This document shows positions 14,674 through 19,238 of a stretch of 64,000 bases of DNA, in pieces. Made by a program: the position numbers and the translations under genes. The DNA lies in contig CAVTHS010000002.1 in assembly GCA_963734535.1 (NCBI GenBank), positions 128,001-192,000 on the forward strand, written 5' to 3'. Below the pieces are notes generated by a model. That model ran no database searches. It had not been told where the DNA came from and saw nothing but the letters and a program-made list of their open reading frames with translations. Position 1 is the first letter of the stretch. Every line of letters begins with the position of its first letter. This DNA comes from an uncultured Chloroflexia bacterium (GTDB lineage Bacteria; Chloroflexota; Limnocylindria; Limnocylindrales; CSP1-4).

Positions 14674-14765
14674 GGAGAGGTCGCATAGAGGCCTAGTGCA
14701 GCGGTTTGCTAAACCGCCATGTGGGGTAACCTGCATCGAGGGTTCGAATCCCTCCCTCTCCGCCA
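14674..14765 (+). tRNA. tRNA-Ser(GCT)
   Basis: Cloverleaf with long variable arm, GCGGT-TTGCTAA-ACCGC and encoded CCA. Upstream extended -10 TGCTAGAAT. Confidence 0.95.
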
Positions 14766-14773
14766 CCTCTCGT

Positions 14774-14849
14774 GCGCCCGTAGCTCAGTGGATAGAGCGC
14801 CAGGTTGCGGACCTGGAGGTCGTGGGTTCGAGTCCCGCCGGGCGCGCCA
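14774..14849 (+). tRNA. tRNA-Arg(GCG)
   Basis: 76-nt cloverleaf with anticodon arm CCAGG-TTGCGGA-CCTGG and CCA end. Confidence 0.92.
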
Positions 14850-16239: not shown

Positions 16240-17090
16240 CCGAGCAGCCTCGCGAGCTCGTCGTATTCCTCGTCCTTCATCCCGAACCAGTTCTCCGGCT
16301 GGGGGAACGTCCGCTCGGTCACCTCGCGGACGTAGCCCGCGAGGCCCTCGCGAATCACGGCCCCGGCGTCGGCGAAGACCTTCGCCATCCGCGGCGTGAA
16401 CTTCGGGTAGAGCGCGAACGCGTCGTGGTAGATGAGCAGCTGGCCGTGGGCGTCGGGCCCCGAGCCCAGGCTCATGATGATGCAGTGCTGCGCCCGCTCG
16501 GTGATGAGCCGGCAGACACGGTCGGGGACGAGCTCCAGCAGGATGCAGAACGCCCCCGCCTCCTCGAGGGCCCGCGCGTCGTCGACGATCTTCTTCGCCT
16601 GTGCCGCGCCCTTGCCCTGGAGACGGAAGCCGCCGAGCGCGCTCACGCTCTGCGGGGTCAGGCCAAGGTGGCCGATGACCGGGATGCCGGCCCGCGCGAT
16701 TCCCGCGACGCGATCCGCCATCTCCGCGCCGCCTTCGAGCTTGACCGCATCGCAGCCCGCCTCGGCCATGAAGCGGCCCGCATTGCGGATCGCGCTCTCG
16801 ACGCTCGGCTGGTAGCTCATGTACGGCATGTCGCCGACCAGCCAGGCCGTCGGCGCCCCGCGGCGCACGGCCGCCGAGTGCCGGATCATGTCGTCCATCG
16901 TCACGGGCAGGGTGCTGTCGAAGCCGAGCATCGTCATGCCCAGGCTGTCCCCCACGAGGATCATGTCGATGCCCGCCTGTTCCTGCAGGTGGGCGGTCGG
17001 GTAGTCGTAGCAGGTCAGCCACGTGATCGGCGTGCCCTCCGCCACCTTCGCGAACAGCGCGGGCAGGGTGACCTTCTTCCGATCCGCCAC
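16236..17090 (-). CDS. panB: 3-methyl-2-oxobutanoate hydroxymethyltransferase
   Basis: TCYD, ILVGDSLG, GDMPY, VKLEGG, GHLGLTPQ. GGAGG precedes the GTG. Confidence 0.92.
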   Translation of the reverse strand: MADRKKVTLPALFAKVAEGTPITWLTCYDYPTAHLQEQAGIDMILVGDSLGMTMLGFDSTLPVTMDDMIRHSAAVRRGAPTAWLVGDMPYMSYQPSVESAIRNAGRFMAEAGCDAVKLEGGAEMADRVAGIARAGIPVIGHLGLTPQSVSALGGFRLQGKGAAQAKKIVDDARALEEAGAFCILLELVPDRVCRLITERAQHCIIMSLGSGPDAHGQLLIYHDAFALYPKFTPRMAKVFADAGAVIREGLAGYVREVTERTFPQPENWFGMKDEEYDELARLLG

Positions 17091-17193
17091 CGTGGCCTCC
17101 TCTCGTGGACGGCCGCGGCGCGGCAACGTCCAGCCGCATCATTCCGGGCCCGCCAGGGTCCGGGGAAGTGCCGTTCCGCCTACACTGCCGCCC

Positions 17194-18090
17194 ATGTCGG
17201 AACGAACCCAACCCCGGATCGGCGTCGTCGGCCTCGGCACCATGGGCGGCGCCATGGCCGCCAACCTGGCCCGGGCCGGGTTCCCGCTCGCCGCCTGGAA
17301 CCGGACCCCGGGGCGCTCGCACGAGCTCGAAGCGCTGGGCATCGACATCGCCGCGACGCCGCGGGCCCTCGCCTCGACGGCCGACATCGTGCTGGTCTGC
17401 GTCTCCGACACGCCAGACGTCGAGGCCGTCCTCTTCGGCCCGGAGGGCGTCGCCGAGGGTGCGGCGCCCGGGTCCCTCGTCATCGACTGCTCCACGATCG
17501 ATCCCGCCGGCAGCCGGCGATTCGCGGCTCGCCTCGCCGAGAACGGGATCGGCTTCGTCGACGCACCGGTCACCGGCGGCAGCGAAGGCGCGCGGAACGC
17601 GACGCTCGCGATCCTCGTTGGCGGCGCCCCGGCCGATGTCGAGCGTGCCCGGCCGGTCCTCGCGGCGATCGGCCGGACGATCACGCACCTCGGCCCCGTC
17701 GGGTCCGGCCAGGCGGCGAAGGCCGTCAACCAGGTGATCCTCGCGGCCACCTACCTGGGCGTCGCCGAAGGCCTCGTCCTTGCCCTCAAGGCCGGTCTCG
17801 ACCCGCACCAGGTGGTGGAGGCCCTCTCCGGCGGGGCGGCCCAGAGCTGGGTCCTCGCCAATCGGAGCGGGCGCATGCTCGCCAACGAGTACCCGCTCGG
17901 CTTCAAGGTCGCGCTGCACCTGAAGGACCTCGGGATCGCGCTGGACATCGCCCGCGAATCCGGCGCTGTCCTGCCGATCGCGGGGCTCGTCGCCCAGCTC
18001 GAGGCCGGCCTCGTCGCGACAGGTCATGGAGACGACGACATGTCCGCCCTCGCCCGCGCGATCAGGGGGCTCTCGGGCCTCGAGGCGTGA
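17194..18090 (+). CDS. NAD(P)-dependent beta-hydroxyacid dehydrogenase (MmsB/GarR family)
   Basis: GLGTMGGAMA, DCSTI, DAPVTGG, GSGQAAKAVNQ, KDL. Confidence 0.9.
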   Translation: MSERTQPRIGVVGLGTMGGAMAANLARAGFPLAAWNRTPGRSHELEALGIDIAATPRALASTADIVLVCVSDTPDVEAVLFGPEGVAEGAAPGSLVIDCSTIDPAGSRRFAARLAENGIGFVDAPVTGGSEGARNATLAILVGGAPADVERARPVLAAIGRTITHLGPVGSGQAAKAVNQVILAATYLGVAEGLVLALKAGLDPHQVVEALSGGAAQSWVLANRSGRMLANEYPLGFKVALHLKDLGIALDIARESGAVLPIAGLVAQLEAGLVATGHGDDDMSALARAIRGLSGLEA

Positions 18091-18122
18091 ACGGCACGAC
18101 CGAGGCAGGGTAGGCTGTCGCC

Positions 18123-18563
18123 ATGCACTACGAGCTCTTCATGGGGGCCGCGCTCGCCGAGGCTCGCGCCGCGGTGGAGAAGGGCGAGCGCCCGCGCGGT
18201 GCCGCCGCGGTCCTCGACGAGGCCCTCGTTGCCAGCGGCCACGAGGAGGTGGTCGCGCGCACCGACCCGACCGCGCACGCGATCGTCGTGACCCTTCGCG
18301 AGGCCGCGGGGCGGCTCGGGAAGACGTCGCTGGCCGGCGTCACCGTCTTCGCGGTCGTCGAGCCCTGCGCAATGTGCGTCGGCGCCCTGCTCGAGTCGGA
18401 CGTCGACCGTCTCGTCTACGCGATCCCGAGCCCGTTCGCCGGTGCCGCCGGCTCGGTGATCCAGCTGGCCGATCATCCCGCGCTCTCGCGGCGGATGGAC
18501 CTCGTCTCGGGGATCCTCCGGGCCGACGCCGCCGACCTGATCGCGGTCGCCACCGAAGCCTGA
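18123..18563 (+). CDS. tadA: TadA-like deaminase-fold protein lacking the catalytic Glu
   Basis: FMGAALAEA, DPTAHAI (canonical DPTAHAE), EPCAMC, GAAGS. Synteny with tRNA-Ser-ffs-dnaX. Confidence 0.8.
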   Translation: MHYELFMGAALAEARAAVEKGERPRGAAAVLDEALVASGHEEVVARTDPTAHAIVVTLREAAGRLGKTSLAGVTVFAVVEPCAMCVGALLESDVDRLVYAIPSPFAGAAGSVIQLADHPALSRRMDLVSGILRADAADLIAVATEA

Positions 18564-18674
18564 ATGCCGGTGAGCGGGCGCCAGCCCGCCCCGGCGTTCC
18601 ACGGTCCGCCCCGCTATCCCGCGAGCGATTCGTGCCCGACCCCCCGGCCCTCTGCCTTTGGTATCCTCTCGAGC

Positions 18675-18760
<86 letters not shown>

Positions 18761-18805
18761 CGCCACTCGGACCCGACCTGCCGGTCCCCGCGCCGACGTG
18801 CCCGC

Positions 18806-18893
18806 GGAGAGGTCGCCTAGAGGCCTAGGGCGCCGCACTGGAAATGCGGTATGGGGCAACCCATCGAGGGTTCGAATCCCTCCCTCTCCGCCA
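18806..18893 (+). tRNA. tRNA-Ser(GGA)
   Basis: CCGCA-CTGGAAA-TGCGG, variable arm, CCA. Confidence 0.95.
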
Positions 18894-18931
18894 CACCCCG
18901 GGTCCATCCCAGCCCCCTGCTATGATCCCGA

Positions 18932-19199
18932 TGCCGTGCTAGGCGGGGAACTAGCGGTGCCCTGTACCTGCAATCCGCTCCAGCAGGGCTGAATTCCCTC
19001 CCGAGGTCCTCGTCTTCGAGAGCCGCCGGCGTGAACGGCGCCGAGGATCGGGTCCCGCGCAGCGGCGACACGCGAACCGCGTCAGGTCCGGAAGGAAGCA
19101 GCGCTAAGCGAGGCTCGTCGGGTGCCGCGGCCAGGCCTGGTCTGAGTCGATCACGTCGGTGGGCGCGGGGACGGCTTGATCGACGGAGGGTGCACGGCA
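18932..19199 (+). ncRNA. ffs: Large (Bacillus-type, Alu-containing) SRP RNA
   Basis: 5' GCCGTGCTAGGCGGGG...GCGGTGCCCTGTACCTGCAATCCGCT; helix 8 TCAGGTCCGGAAGGAAGCAGC; ends pair (GCCGTGC/GCACGGC); TGCTATGAT promoter upstream. Confidence 0.93.
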
Positions 19200-19238
19200 A
19201 ATCTTCTTCCTGTTGCCGCGACCCGGATCGGGAGCCCA

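Follow-up and report, generated by a model that had tools for sequence, protein, structure and literature searches.

Why would a bacterium keep intact a gene for a tRNA adenosine deaminase that has lost the residue on which its chemistry depends? Among bacteria TadA is regarded as essential and almost universal, and it is the parent of ADAT2/ADAT3 and of the adenine base editors. The question arises from the window, by which we mean the whole stretch of 64,000 nucleotides (nt) of an uncultured soil bacterium of the Limnocylindria (Chloroflexota) that was analysed, in which an open reading frame (ORF) at 18123..18563 encodes a TadA-like protein devoid of the glutamate of the HAE motif. A first-pass annotation, made from the letters of this stretch, had read it as a pseudo-enzyme retained after the replacement of its substrate, tRNA-Arg(ACG). 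The answer we propose, to which we give a probability of about 0.8, is that the ORF is a positional tadA orthologue turned into a catalytically dead pseudo-enzyme, zinc-bound and probably dimeric, and retained for a selected binding role.

Loss of the catalytic glutamate

The elements of the ORF on which the argument turns are the following.

18123..18563, plus strand: Glu-less TadA-like ORF, 146 amino acids plus stop, ATG start, GC content at third codon positions (GC3) 0.93
18243..18245, plus strand: codon 41, GAG (Glu), at the site of the adenine-N3-binding Asn (Asn42 of S. aureus TadA), from the alignment columns
18276..18377, plus strand: retained zinc site, His52 (18276-18278), Cys82 (18366-18368) and Cys85 (18375-18377), from the alignment
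18282..18284, plus strand: codon 54, ATC (Ile), at the site of the HAE proton-shuttle Glu, from the translation and the alignment columns
18519..18560, plus strand: C-terminal helix and tail without FFxxRR, with the helix at 133-145 in the model and a tail that is variable among orthologues

The frame is intact, as the first-pass annotation had it, and its translation contains DPTAHAIVVTLRE, in which the motif reads DPTAHAIVV. The loss of the Glu is a property of the whole family and not of one sequence, the site being occupied by Val (59), Ile (12) or Leu (2) in all 73 orthologues and by Glu in 30/30 canonical relatives. The corresponding codons are GTG/GTC/GTT (59), ATC (12) and CTC/CTG (2) in the orthologues, and GAG (28) or GAA (2) in the canonical relatives; from this spread, the path GAG>GTG>GTC>ATC is likely, rather than a one-base error, ATC having no position in common with GAA or GAG. 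Sequencing data, in which a Glu might have reappeared, list no difference at this codon: the DNA contig of the public run X1 that spans 17000-18578 carries 15 listed differences, with 0 of them at 18282-18284.

The substitution of the Asn had been overlooked. According to the available text of PMC8216470, the wobble adenine is held at its N3 by Asn42 in S. aureus TadA, and the C-terminal helix contacts the anticodon loop; this Asn of strand 2 is a TadA feature in PMC3239186 as well. The equivalent of this Asn is Glu41 in the window's protein; the site is Asn in 30/30 canonical relatives and Asp, Glu, Arg or another residue in 71/73 Glu-less proteins (Asn kept in 2/73), and the codons suggest a path AAC>GAC>GAG. 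The zinc ligands, His and PCAMC, were rightly reported as kept, since H52, C82 and C85 are invariant in 35/35 sequences of the alignment and are conserved in both the Glu-less (73) and the canonical (30) groups. As for the C-terminal FFxxRR helix, which had been called absent, the motif is indeed missing but the helix itself is predicted (133-145). The F-F columns of the motif are found in 29-30 of the 30 canonical relatives and are variable (A/T/S) in the Glu-less set.

The profile searches identify the TadA family. Pfam PF14437 and PF00383 match the ORF over residues 3-125, and the TadA profile covers residues 3-140. Among NCBIfam models the TadA equivalog NF008113 ranks first, with 106.4 bits for a cut-off of 150; other Glu-less members reach 116-129 bits and one canonical Limnocylindria TadA 147.7 bits. 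The automatic annotation of the Joint Genome Institute (JGI), 'tRNA(adenine34) deaminase', wrongly implies the presence of I34 in these organisms.

Arginine decoding without inosine

The genome to which the window belongs (G000) is a metagenome-assembled genome (MAG) of 3.2 Mb in 14 contigs, with 72% GC, 89.9% completeness and 7.1% contamination. Another HAE-type tadA and a tRNA-Arg(ACG) had been named as the genes whose presence would matter, and neither was found in this 90% complete MAG. The profile search gave a single TadA-family match, the ORF itself, and no second TadA; the sole other gene with the cytidine deaminase (CDA) fold encodes a cytidine deaminase that is small, of the tetramer type, and bears the motifs CAE and PCGGC. 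None of the 51 tRNAs predicted by ARAGORN carries A34. The Arg anticodons are GCG, CCG, TCG, TCT and CCT; of these, GCG, CCG and UCG together suffice for every CGN codon with no need of inosine. Among the Arg codons, CGC comes first (37.9 per 1000) and dominates together with CGG (29.5), with CGA at 5.0 and CGT at 4.3, as counted crudely in 1155 long ORFs of high GC3.

The tRNA-Arg(GCG) itself, also overlooked by the first-pass annotation, lies inside the window, in a pair situated 3.3 kb 5' of the ORF and found upstream in most related loci.

14674..14765, plus strand: tRNA-Ser(GCT), paired with tRNA-Arg(GCG) (ARAGORN, Rfam)
14774..14849, plus strand: tRNA-Arg(GCG), which with its G34 takes the place of tRNA-Arg(ACG), the substrate of TadA (ARAGORN; Rfam tRNA, 71.2 bits)

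Some predictions of the same genome stand apart. A 92-nt tRNA-Arg(CCG) called by ARAGORN at 31765-31856 on the minus strand is probably a false call in GC-rich DNA, no Rfam tRNA being found in 31600-32000 at E <=0.01. A second 92-nt ARAGORN tRNA-Arg(CCG) is found on contig C4, and a tRNA-Ile(TAT) is predicted at G000:C11:65735-65810. The latter anticodon is rare in bacteria, where the usual reader of AUA is a CAT tRNA modified with lysidine.

The arginine tRNA and TadA in related bacteria

The families of the class Limnocylindria are labelled here f1 to f5, the genus of the window being within f1. Position 34 was read by a search with the pattern of the anticodon arm, and the figures for Limnocylindria hold among the matches listed (150 of 251 rows). 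The UUGCGGA loop of the GCG arm is present in f1 (44/44 genomes with a match) and f2 (6/6), f4 (50/50 with a match) also shows the GCG arm, and these three families have the same tRNA-Arg(GCG) anticodon arm in common; the CUACG[A/G]A loops of the ACG arm occur in f3 and f5. In f4, an exact match to the arm is found in 54/61 genomes, and all 56 rows show G34. The TadA sequences of f3 and f5 (30/30) possess both HAE and FFxxRR.

One f3 genome (G089, genus g18, 86% complete) is the only one of its family with a GCG arm, and a TadA hit is lacking there (best E 1.8e-10). G571, a genome of another family, has exactly this arm, which may result from contamination or from an independent switch.

The survey of the phylum used a stricter arm pattern on 151 Chloroflexota genomes at least 95% complete, of which 78 matched and 73 did not. 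Among the matching genomes, GCG stands alone in 73 and ACG alone in 4, and the two occur together in 1; 85 of the 90 rows are G34. The ACG-type genomes examined all have a canonical TadA (5/5, 147-174 bits, HAE and FFxxLR), followed in 2 of them by tRNA-Ser(CGA). In ten near-complete GCG-type genomes of other Chloroflexota families, a TadA or TadA-like gene was found in 0/10, the best 'TadA' hits being RibD or cytosine-deaminase-like ORFs, which were rejected. The pattern of the phylum is thus ACG with TadA and GCG without TadA, with the exception of f1 and f4, which have a Glu-less copy, and much of Chloroflexota appears, from its tRNA sequences, to decode CGN without inosine.

One Glu-less clade under constraint

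The Glu-less protein is not an isolated variant. All 24 other genomes of the genus have an orthologue (72-97% identity), and the motif reads H-A-[I/V/L] in 25/25 loci, that of G000 included. Further Limnocylindria loci, down to 55% identity, are Glu-less in 23/23 cases and have tRNA-Arg(GCG) upstream wherever the locus extends far enough. A search of the class with NF008113 matched 138/151 genomes (f1 39/44, f2 0/6, f3 48/49, f4 49/50, f5 1/1). The best 30 loci of this search have HAE and FFxxRR and come from f3 and f5, together with the locus L056, and the matches fetched from 20 f4 genomes and from 20 f1 genomes outside the genus are Glu-less in 40/40. After the removal of duplicates, 73 distinct Glu-less proteins of f1 and f4 remain, all of them complete ORFs, the f4 orthologues being 45-54% identical to the window's protein. 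Ten genomes flagged as unpublished are included in the counts (G102, G122, G131, G135, G157, G167, G185, G259, G369, G453), and two unpublished sequences are among the 30 canonical ones, L060 (G135) and L081 (G102); no claim depends on these alone.

The Glu-less proteins form one clade, with a Shimodaira-Hasegawa-like approximate likelihood ratio test (SH-aLRT) value of 98 and a stem of 0.82 in a tree of 109 rows, and, in a tree of 48 rows under LG+C20, with 100/99 as support on a stem that measures 1.34 substitutions per site. Inside the clade, f4 is apart from f1, as in the taxonomy. The clade joins the other Chloroflexota TadA weakly (74/48), and no donor or order of events is claimed. The canonical TadA of f3 and f5 (L057-L085) groups with Nocardioidaceae TadA (83/88), apart from the TadA of other Chloroflexota. 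The HAE TadA of L056, carried by a 3.4-kb contig (G088:C60) of an f4 genome that also has a Glu-less copy, groups with Nocardioidaceae TadA as well and is probably a contamination.

The ratio of nonsynonymous to synonymous substitution (dN/dS), by which neutral decay of the Glu-less orthologues might have been revealed, points the other way. The median pairwise value by the method of Nei and Gojobori (NG86) is 0.21 in the genus (300/300 pairs usable), 0.32 in other f1 (371/378) and 0.23 in f4 (190/190), for 0.32 in the canonical TadA of f3 and f5 (431/435); on genes of 72% GC with dS of 0.7-0.9, these absolute values are rough, and the comparison is like for like. The sequences indicate that the Glu-less ORF is under purifying selection across two Limnocylindria families, and the long stem suggests a burst of change followed by renewed constraint.

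The comparison of the 73 Glu-less with the 30 canonical proteins, 'conserved' meaning at least 90% of the canonical relatives, specifies what has changed. Conserved in the canonical proteins and lost or variable in the Glu-less ones are H20, D22, V23, N41, R43, E44, E54, W68, R69 and R93, as well as K105, N122, H123, W127, R128, F143, F144 and the following Arg. Both groups keep DPTxHA, EPCxMC, GA at 87-88 and G107-A108. Newly fixed in the Glu-less clade are the N-terminus M-x-Y-E-L-F/Y-M and the residues T74, F76, V86, A100, G110, A116 and S129-G130. In the 35 aligned sequences, 28 columns are invariant.

Predicted fold and dimer

The best sequence matches among solved structures are TadA enzymes, with E down to 1.9e-24 and, in the alignments shown, no gap over residues 3-140; ADAT3 chains are also found by sequence (E 1.9e-11). 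An AlphaFold (AF2) model built from 35 orthologues has a predicted local distance difference test (pLDDT) of 82.2 and a predicted template modelling (TM) score of 0.83, its confidence being lowest in the blocks of residues 41-50 and 101-110. The CDA/TadA fold, including helix 4 and the C-terminal helices, is present in this model. The top Foldseek matches are all TadA (TM 0.88-0.90, 31-33% identity), and guanosine deaminase, ADAT2 and ADAT3 rank behind.

The model of the homodimer scores 0.75, for 0.24 in the best control; at least 98% of contacts are common to the runs, and the partner pLDDT is at least 94. The mark set for this score is reached by 20/30 proteins solved as pairs and by 1/23 solved as single chains. 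The modelled interface includes residues 43-52, 82-93 and 112-122. The protein would probably form a TadA-like homodimer; the solved TadA dimers may explain why the model passes, and the result is to be read as likeness rather than as proof of binding.

A Glu-less TadA-like gene in Omnitrophota

A profile search of 1.84 billion representative proteins extended the survey beyond Limnocylindria. Among the matches listed (150 proteins), 105 have HAE, 34 are Glu-less and 11 are unreadable by motif; by motif only, most of the 34 look like Limnocylindria fragments. One of them, P0176, with Ile at the Glu site, led to an Omnitrophota MAG (locus L233, genome G578). Among the 80 loci of its relatives only L233 is Glu-less, 78 having HAE and 1 being without the motif. 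Its gene, the single TadA-like gene of G578 (134 bits), reads HAV, has Thr at the Asn site, misses FFxxRR, and is located 6 nt 3' of tRNA-Arg(GCG) and 6 nt 5' of tRNA-Ser(GCT). The pattern search for tRNA-Arg in this one Omnitrophota genome found GCG, TCG, CCG and CCT, and did not find ACG.

The Omnitrophota protein is thus like that of the window in the loss of the Glu, of the Asn and of FFxxRR, in being encoded by a single gene and in having an adjacent tRNA-Arg(GCG). It differs in that it is only 39% identical and keeps several canonical residues that are altered in Limnocylindria. In a quick tree, L233 joins the Limnocylindria Glu-less clade (SH-aLRT 92). Once 18 trait columns are removed, the free tree separates it from Limnocylindria and the joined tree is not rejected (approximately unbiased test, p-AU 0.574). 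Another Glu-less singleton, P0150, was rejected as a second lineage, its relatives in genomes of Rhodothermales, Myxococcota and others having HAE in 80/80 cases; it is an isolated variant or an error.

Genomic context and expression

The ORF precedes a cluster of RNA genes and of dnaX, ybaB and recR, as the first-pass annotation had described, the three protein genes exceeding their NCBIfam cut-offs.

18675-18760, plus strand: tRNA-Ser(CGA) (ARAGORN, Rfam)
18806-18893, plus strand: tRNA-Ser(GGA) (ARAGORN, Rfam)
18934..19197, plus strand: signal recognition particle (SRP) RNA, ffs (Rfam RF01854, 184.2 bits)
19176..21946, plus strand: dnaX (broken frame), ybaB and recR (NCBIfam, all above cut-off)
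19176-21344 and 20032-20907: dnaX with its change of frame, the N-terminal part (TIGR02397, 342.6 bits) being in one frame
20980-21315, plus strand: ybaB (TIGR00103, 84.8 bits)
21329-21946, plus strand: recR (TIGR00615, 239.1 bits)

This position is that of an orthologous tadA, for the canonical tadA of other Chloroflexota and of one Nocardioidaceae genome also precedes tRNA-Ser(CGA). In five f4 loci the order is the ORF, a gap of 23-61 nt, tRNA-Ser(CGA), tRNA-Ser(GGA) and dnaX, with recR in 4/5 and an ybaB-sized ORF in 1/5; in Limnocylindria the gap from the ORF to tRNA-Ser(CGA) is 23-111 nt. On the other side, a gene of the 2-hydroxy-3-oxopropionate reductase/HIBADH-family dehydrogenases stops 33 nt 5' of the start codon of the ORF. 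The upstream gene differs between f1 and f4 and is divergent in 4/5 of the f4 loci examined. Only the linkage to the tRNA cluster, which is ancestral, is conserved.

The C-terminal tau part of dnaX is in another frame and matches model positions 392-579 of 585, and in the relatives L039, L042 and L049 dnaX is a single ORF of 619-676 codons between stops; the frame change comes either from an indel in the assembly or from a genuine frameshift.

The -10 element (TAGGCT) attributed to the ORF could not be substantiated, a sigma-70 promoter scan and a terminator scan of 16800-19300 giving 0 and 0 sites. Three RNA libraries (X15-X17) were considered. Contigs of at least 90% likeness overlap the ORF in X16 (17985-18206, 2.9x) and in X17 (18140-18297, 3.6x), and most bins of the ORF are without cover in the three libraries. 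A piece of high depth at 18309-18385 (X15, X16) was set aside, its contig being joined to the SRP RNA region and probably coming from elsewhere.

Functional interpretation

The model we propose starts from the replacement of tRNA-Arg(ACG) by tRNA-Arg(GCG) in a lineage that decodes CGN with GCG, CCG and UCG, in which the editing of A34 would no longer be needed. TadA would have lost its proton-shuttle Glu, its adenine-binding Asn and its tRNA-contacting C-terminal motif while keeping its fold and its zinc ligands, and the dead copy would have been kept intact for a non-catalytic role. The proposal of a pseudo-enzyme retained after the loss of its substrate is sustained by the tRNA-Arg(GCG) of the window, the 0/51 tRNAs with A34, the single TadA of the genome, the 73/73 Glu-less orthologues, the dN/dS of 0.21-0.32 and the tadA position of the gene. 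It is very likely that the protein no longer deaminates A34 or any other base, and likely, if less so, that it fulfils a role that is selected, non-catalytic and dispensable. Within the latter, the binding of a protein or of a small ligand by the preserved pocket and the dimer surface would have a little under an even chance, and the binding of RNA or tRNA in a non-canonical mode would have about half of that, the rest falling to other roles.

Several observations weigh against this interpretation. The Glu-less gene is dispensable, the Glu-less profile finding a real match in 0/42 genomes of the streamlined f2 (0.7-1.4 Mb), and a TadA-like gene being absent from 10/10 of the other GCG-type Chloroflexota, which fits a weak or conditional function; five f2 hits of 19-21 bits were rejected, as they lie inside ORFs of 417-419 amino acids. 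The dN/dS values are rough in absolute terms. A second tadA or a tRNA-Arg(ACG) could lie unassembled in an incomplete and contaminated MAG; to this worry about the tRNA can be opposed that an ACG arm is found neither among the f1 matches listed nor in any of the 56 f4 rows. The f1 and f4 loci share no conserved protein-coding neighbour that would point to a partner. The RNA libraries give only a weak hint of expression, with DNA carry-over possible. Finally, zinc binding, dimerisation and inactivity are all properties that we infer.

The first-pass annotation had suggested an RNA binder or a partner subunit as the new role. A non-catalytic tRNA or RNA binder would act on tRNA-Arg(GCG) or on the precursor of the tRNA operon as a chaperone, a processing factor or a shield. 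In both phyla the gene has kept its place among tRNA-Ser and tRNA-Arg genes, with 23-111 nt between it and the following tRNA-Ser(CGA) in Limnocylindria and 6 nt between it and the preceding tRNA-Arg(GCG) in the Omnitrophota genome. Position 64, variable in the canonical proteins, is Arg or Lys in 73/73 Glu-less ones, and the DPTAHA and GAAGS stretches that line the pocket are kept. However, the linkage to tRNA genes is ancestral for tadA and need not reflect function, and genomes with the same tRNA-Arg(GCG) arm manage without the protein. Asn42, the NH(H/R) loop, the FFxxRR helix and the basic residue that follows strand 4, by which TadA grips the anticodon loop, are lost or variable, as are, among the canonical residues, Asn41, R43/E44, K105, N122/H123, W127/R128 and F143/F144 with the following Arg. 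The protein is also acidic, with a median isoelectric point (pI) of 4.97-5.42, for 6.48 in the canonical group, and a median charge of -5 to -8. The loss of the tRNA contacts and the acidity of the protein are therefore not in favour of this role, which we consider unlikely.

A protein that is still an enzyme, a zinc hydrolase or a deaminase acting on a new substrate, would require that Glu/Asp41, Glu4 or the substrate itself take over the proton transfer. The invariant zinc ligands and pocket loops, the Asp or Glu found at position 41 in 63/73 proteins, the invariance of Glu4 in the clade and the long stem followed by renewed constraint would all suit a change of function of this kind. Yet position 41 provides no conserved catalytic residue, since 5 f4 sequences have Arg there and 5 other sequences have Ala, His or Asn, and Glu4 is also present in E. 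coli-type TadA. To our knowledge, no deaminase of the CDA fold works without the Glu of the HxE/CxE motif. ADAT3, in which the Glu is likewise replaced by Val, is inactive according to the accessible part of PMC8216470. A retained enzymatic activity is thus very improbable.

A pairing of the ADAT2/ADAT3 kind, in which the protein would be the inactive subunit beside a catalytic deaminase, is more doubtful still. The change of Glu to Val or Ile and the loss of the C-terminal tRNA-binding determinants are those of ADAT3, whose chains are matched by sequence (E 1.9e-11), and a paralogue of HAE type, a nucleoside deaminase, is encoded in part of the genus. This paralogue, of 151-164 amino acids and ending in ...WLAKPDRV(P/S)Y, is nevertheless found in just 13/24 other genomes of the genus, and the protein has no ADAT3-like N-terminal domain, while the model of the self-dimer passes its controls. 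Neither a second TadA-family protein nor an HAE nucleoside deaminase was found in the window's own genome, only the small cytidine deaminase, and no catalytic TadA/ADAT2-like protein was found there; the partner-subunit role is therefore not favoured. The paralogue is exemplified by loci L027-L031 (genomes G021, G006, G013, G016, G001); its first 105 residues match the TadA model with 74.9 bits.

That the ORF is a decaying relic, or is kept open only by its transcription unit with the essential tRNA-Ser and SRP RNA genes (polarity, for example), would account for its dispensability in f2 and other Chloroflexota and for its place directly upstream of tRNA genes, but it is the least credible explanation, because 73/73 ORFs are intact in lineages only 45-54% identical (f4 against the window's protein), their dN/dS (0.21-0.32) is no higher than that of the active TadA, invariance extends to the zinc ligands, the N-terminus and 28 columns, and the avoidance of polarity would keep an open frame and not particular residues.

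The dead, zinc-bound and selected protein remains our preferred interpretation, and its reach may extend beyond the window. On balance, we think it rather probable that it represents a stand-alone bacterial pseudo-TadA family that arose as the wobble-inosine decoding of Arg was abandoned, was recruited to a selected non-deaminase function and converges on the inactivating changes of ADAT3, in at least two phyla (Limnocylindria and Omnitrophota), within a phylum that is mostly of GCG type without TadA.

Comparison with known systems

GCG decoding without TadA in Chloroflexota runs against the textbook bacterial tRNA-Arg(ICG). In our searches of the literature, from which supplementary tables and most subscription journals were outside the scope, no description of a Glu-less bacterial TadA or of GCG-type decoding in Chloroflexota was found. 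Diwan and Agashe (2018; PMC6063277), in the part of the article at hand, place TadA at the bacterial root. A preprint (10.64898/2026.05.15.725136) states, in its accessible portion, that where there is a preference for ACG the Arg-tRNA GCG is missing, a statement that, as worded there, fails for Chloroflexota. The situation of the Limnocylindria amounts to a natural experiment in which, with the substrate tRNA replaced, the gene disappeared from most relatives while one clade kept a dead copy under a constraint as strong as that of the active enzyme. It bears on what the TadA scaffold can do without chemistry, and on how an ADAT3-like pseudo-subunit might arise.

Bacterial TadA (NF008113; 1Z3A, 2B3J, 1WWR, 3OCQ) shares with the window's protein its fold, a gapless alignment over residues 3-140, the zinc ligands, EPCxMC, the predicted homodimer interface and the position of its gene before tRNA-Ser(CGA), ffs, dnaX, ybaB and recR. 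The protein described here differs from it by the absence of the catalytic Glu, of the Asn42 equivalent and of FFxxRR, by its acidity, by an NF008113 score below the cut-off and by a genome in which no tRNA-Arg(ACG) was found. Iyer et al. (2011; PMC3239186), in the text available to us, describe the synapomorphies of TadA and a Tad3 without Glu. The likeness to ADAT3/Tad3 is close on several points which, in what is accessible of PMC8216470 and PMC3239186, include the descent from TadA, the replacement of the proton-shuttle Glu by Val, the conservation of the zinc site, the loss of the C-terminal tRNA determinants and a negative surface over the pocket. The former source also gives the cause of the inactivity of ADAT3 and presents it, as far as its available text goes, as working only as a heterodimer with ADAT2 and as having an N-terminal tRNA-binding domain, unlike the single 146-residue domain described here, for which no catalytic partner or A34 tRNA was found.

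The decoding itself has a parallel in Mollicutes, in which, according to the available text of Yokobori et al. (2013; PMC3711424), tadA loss accompanies the change of ACG to GCG together with UCG, so that tRNA-Arg(GCG) and tRNA-Arg(UCG) replace tRNA-Arg(ICG) as in Limnocylindria. In those reduced parasites tadA was lost outright, whereas in these free-living, high-GC organisms a Glu-less copy has been retained and constrained.

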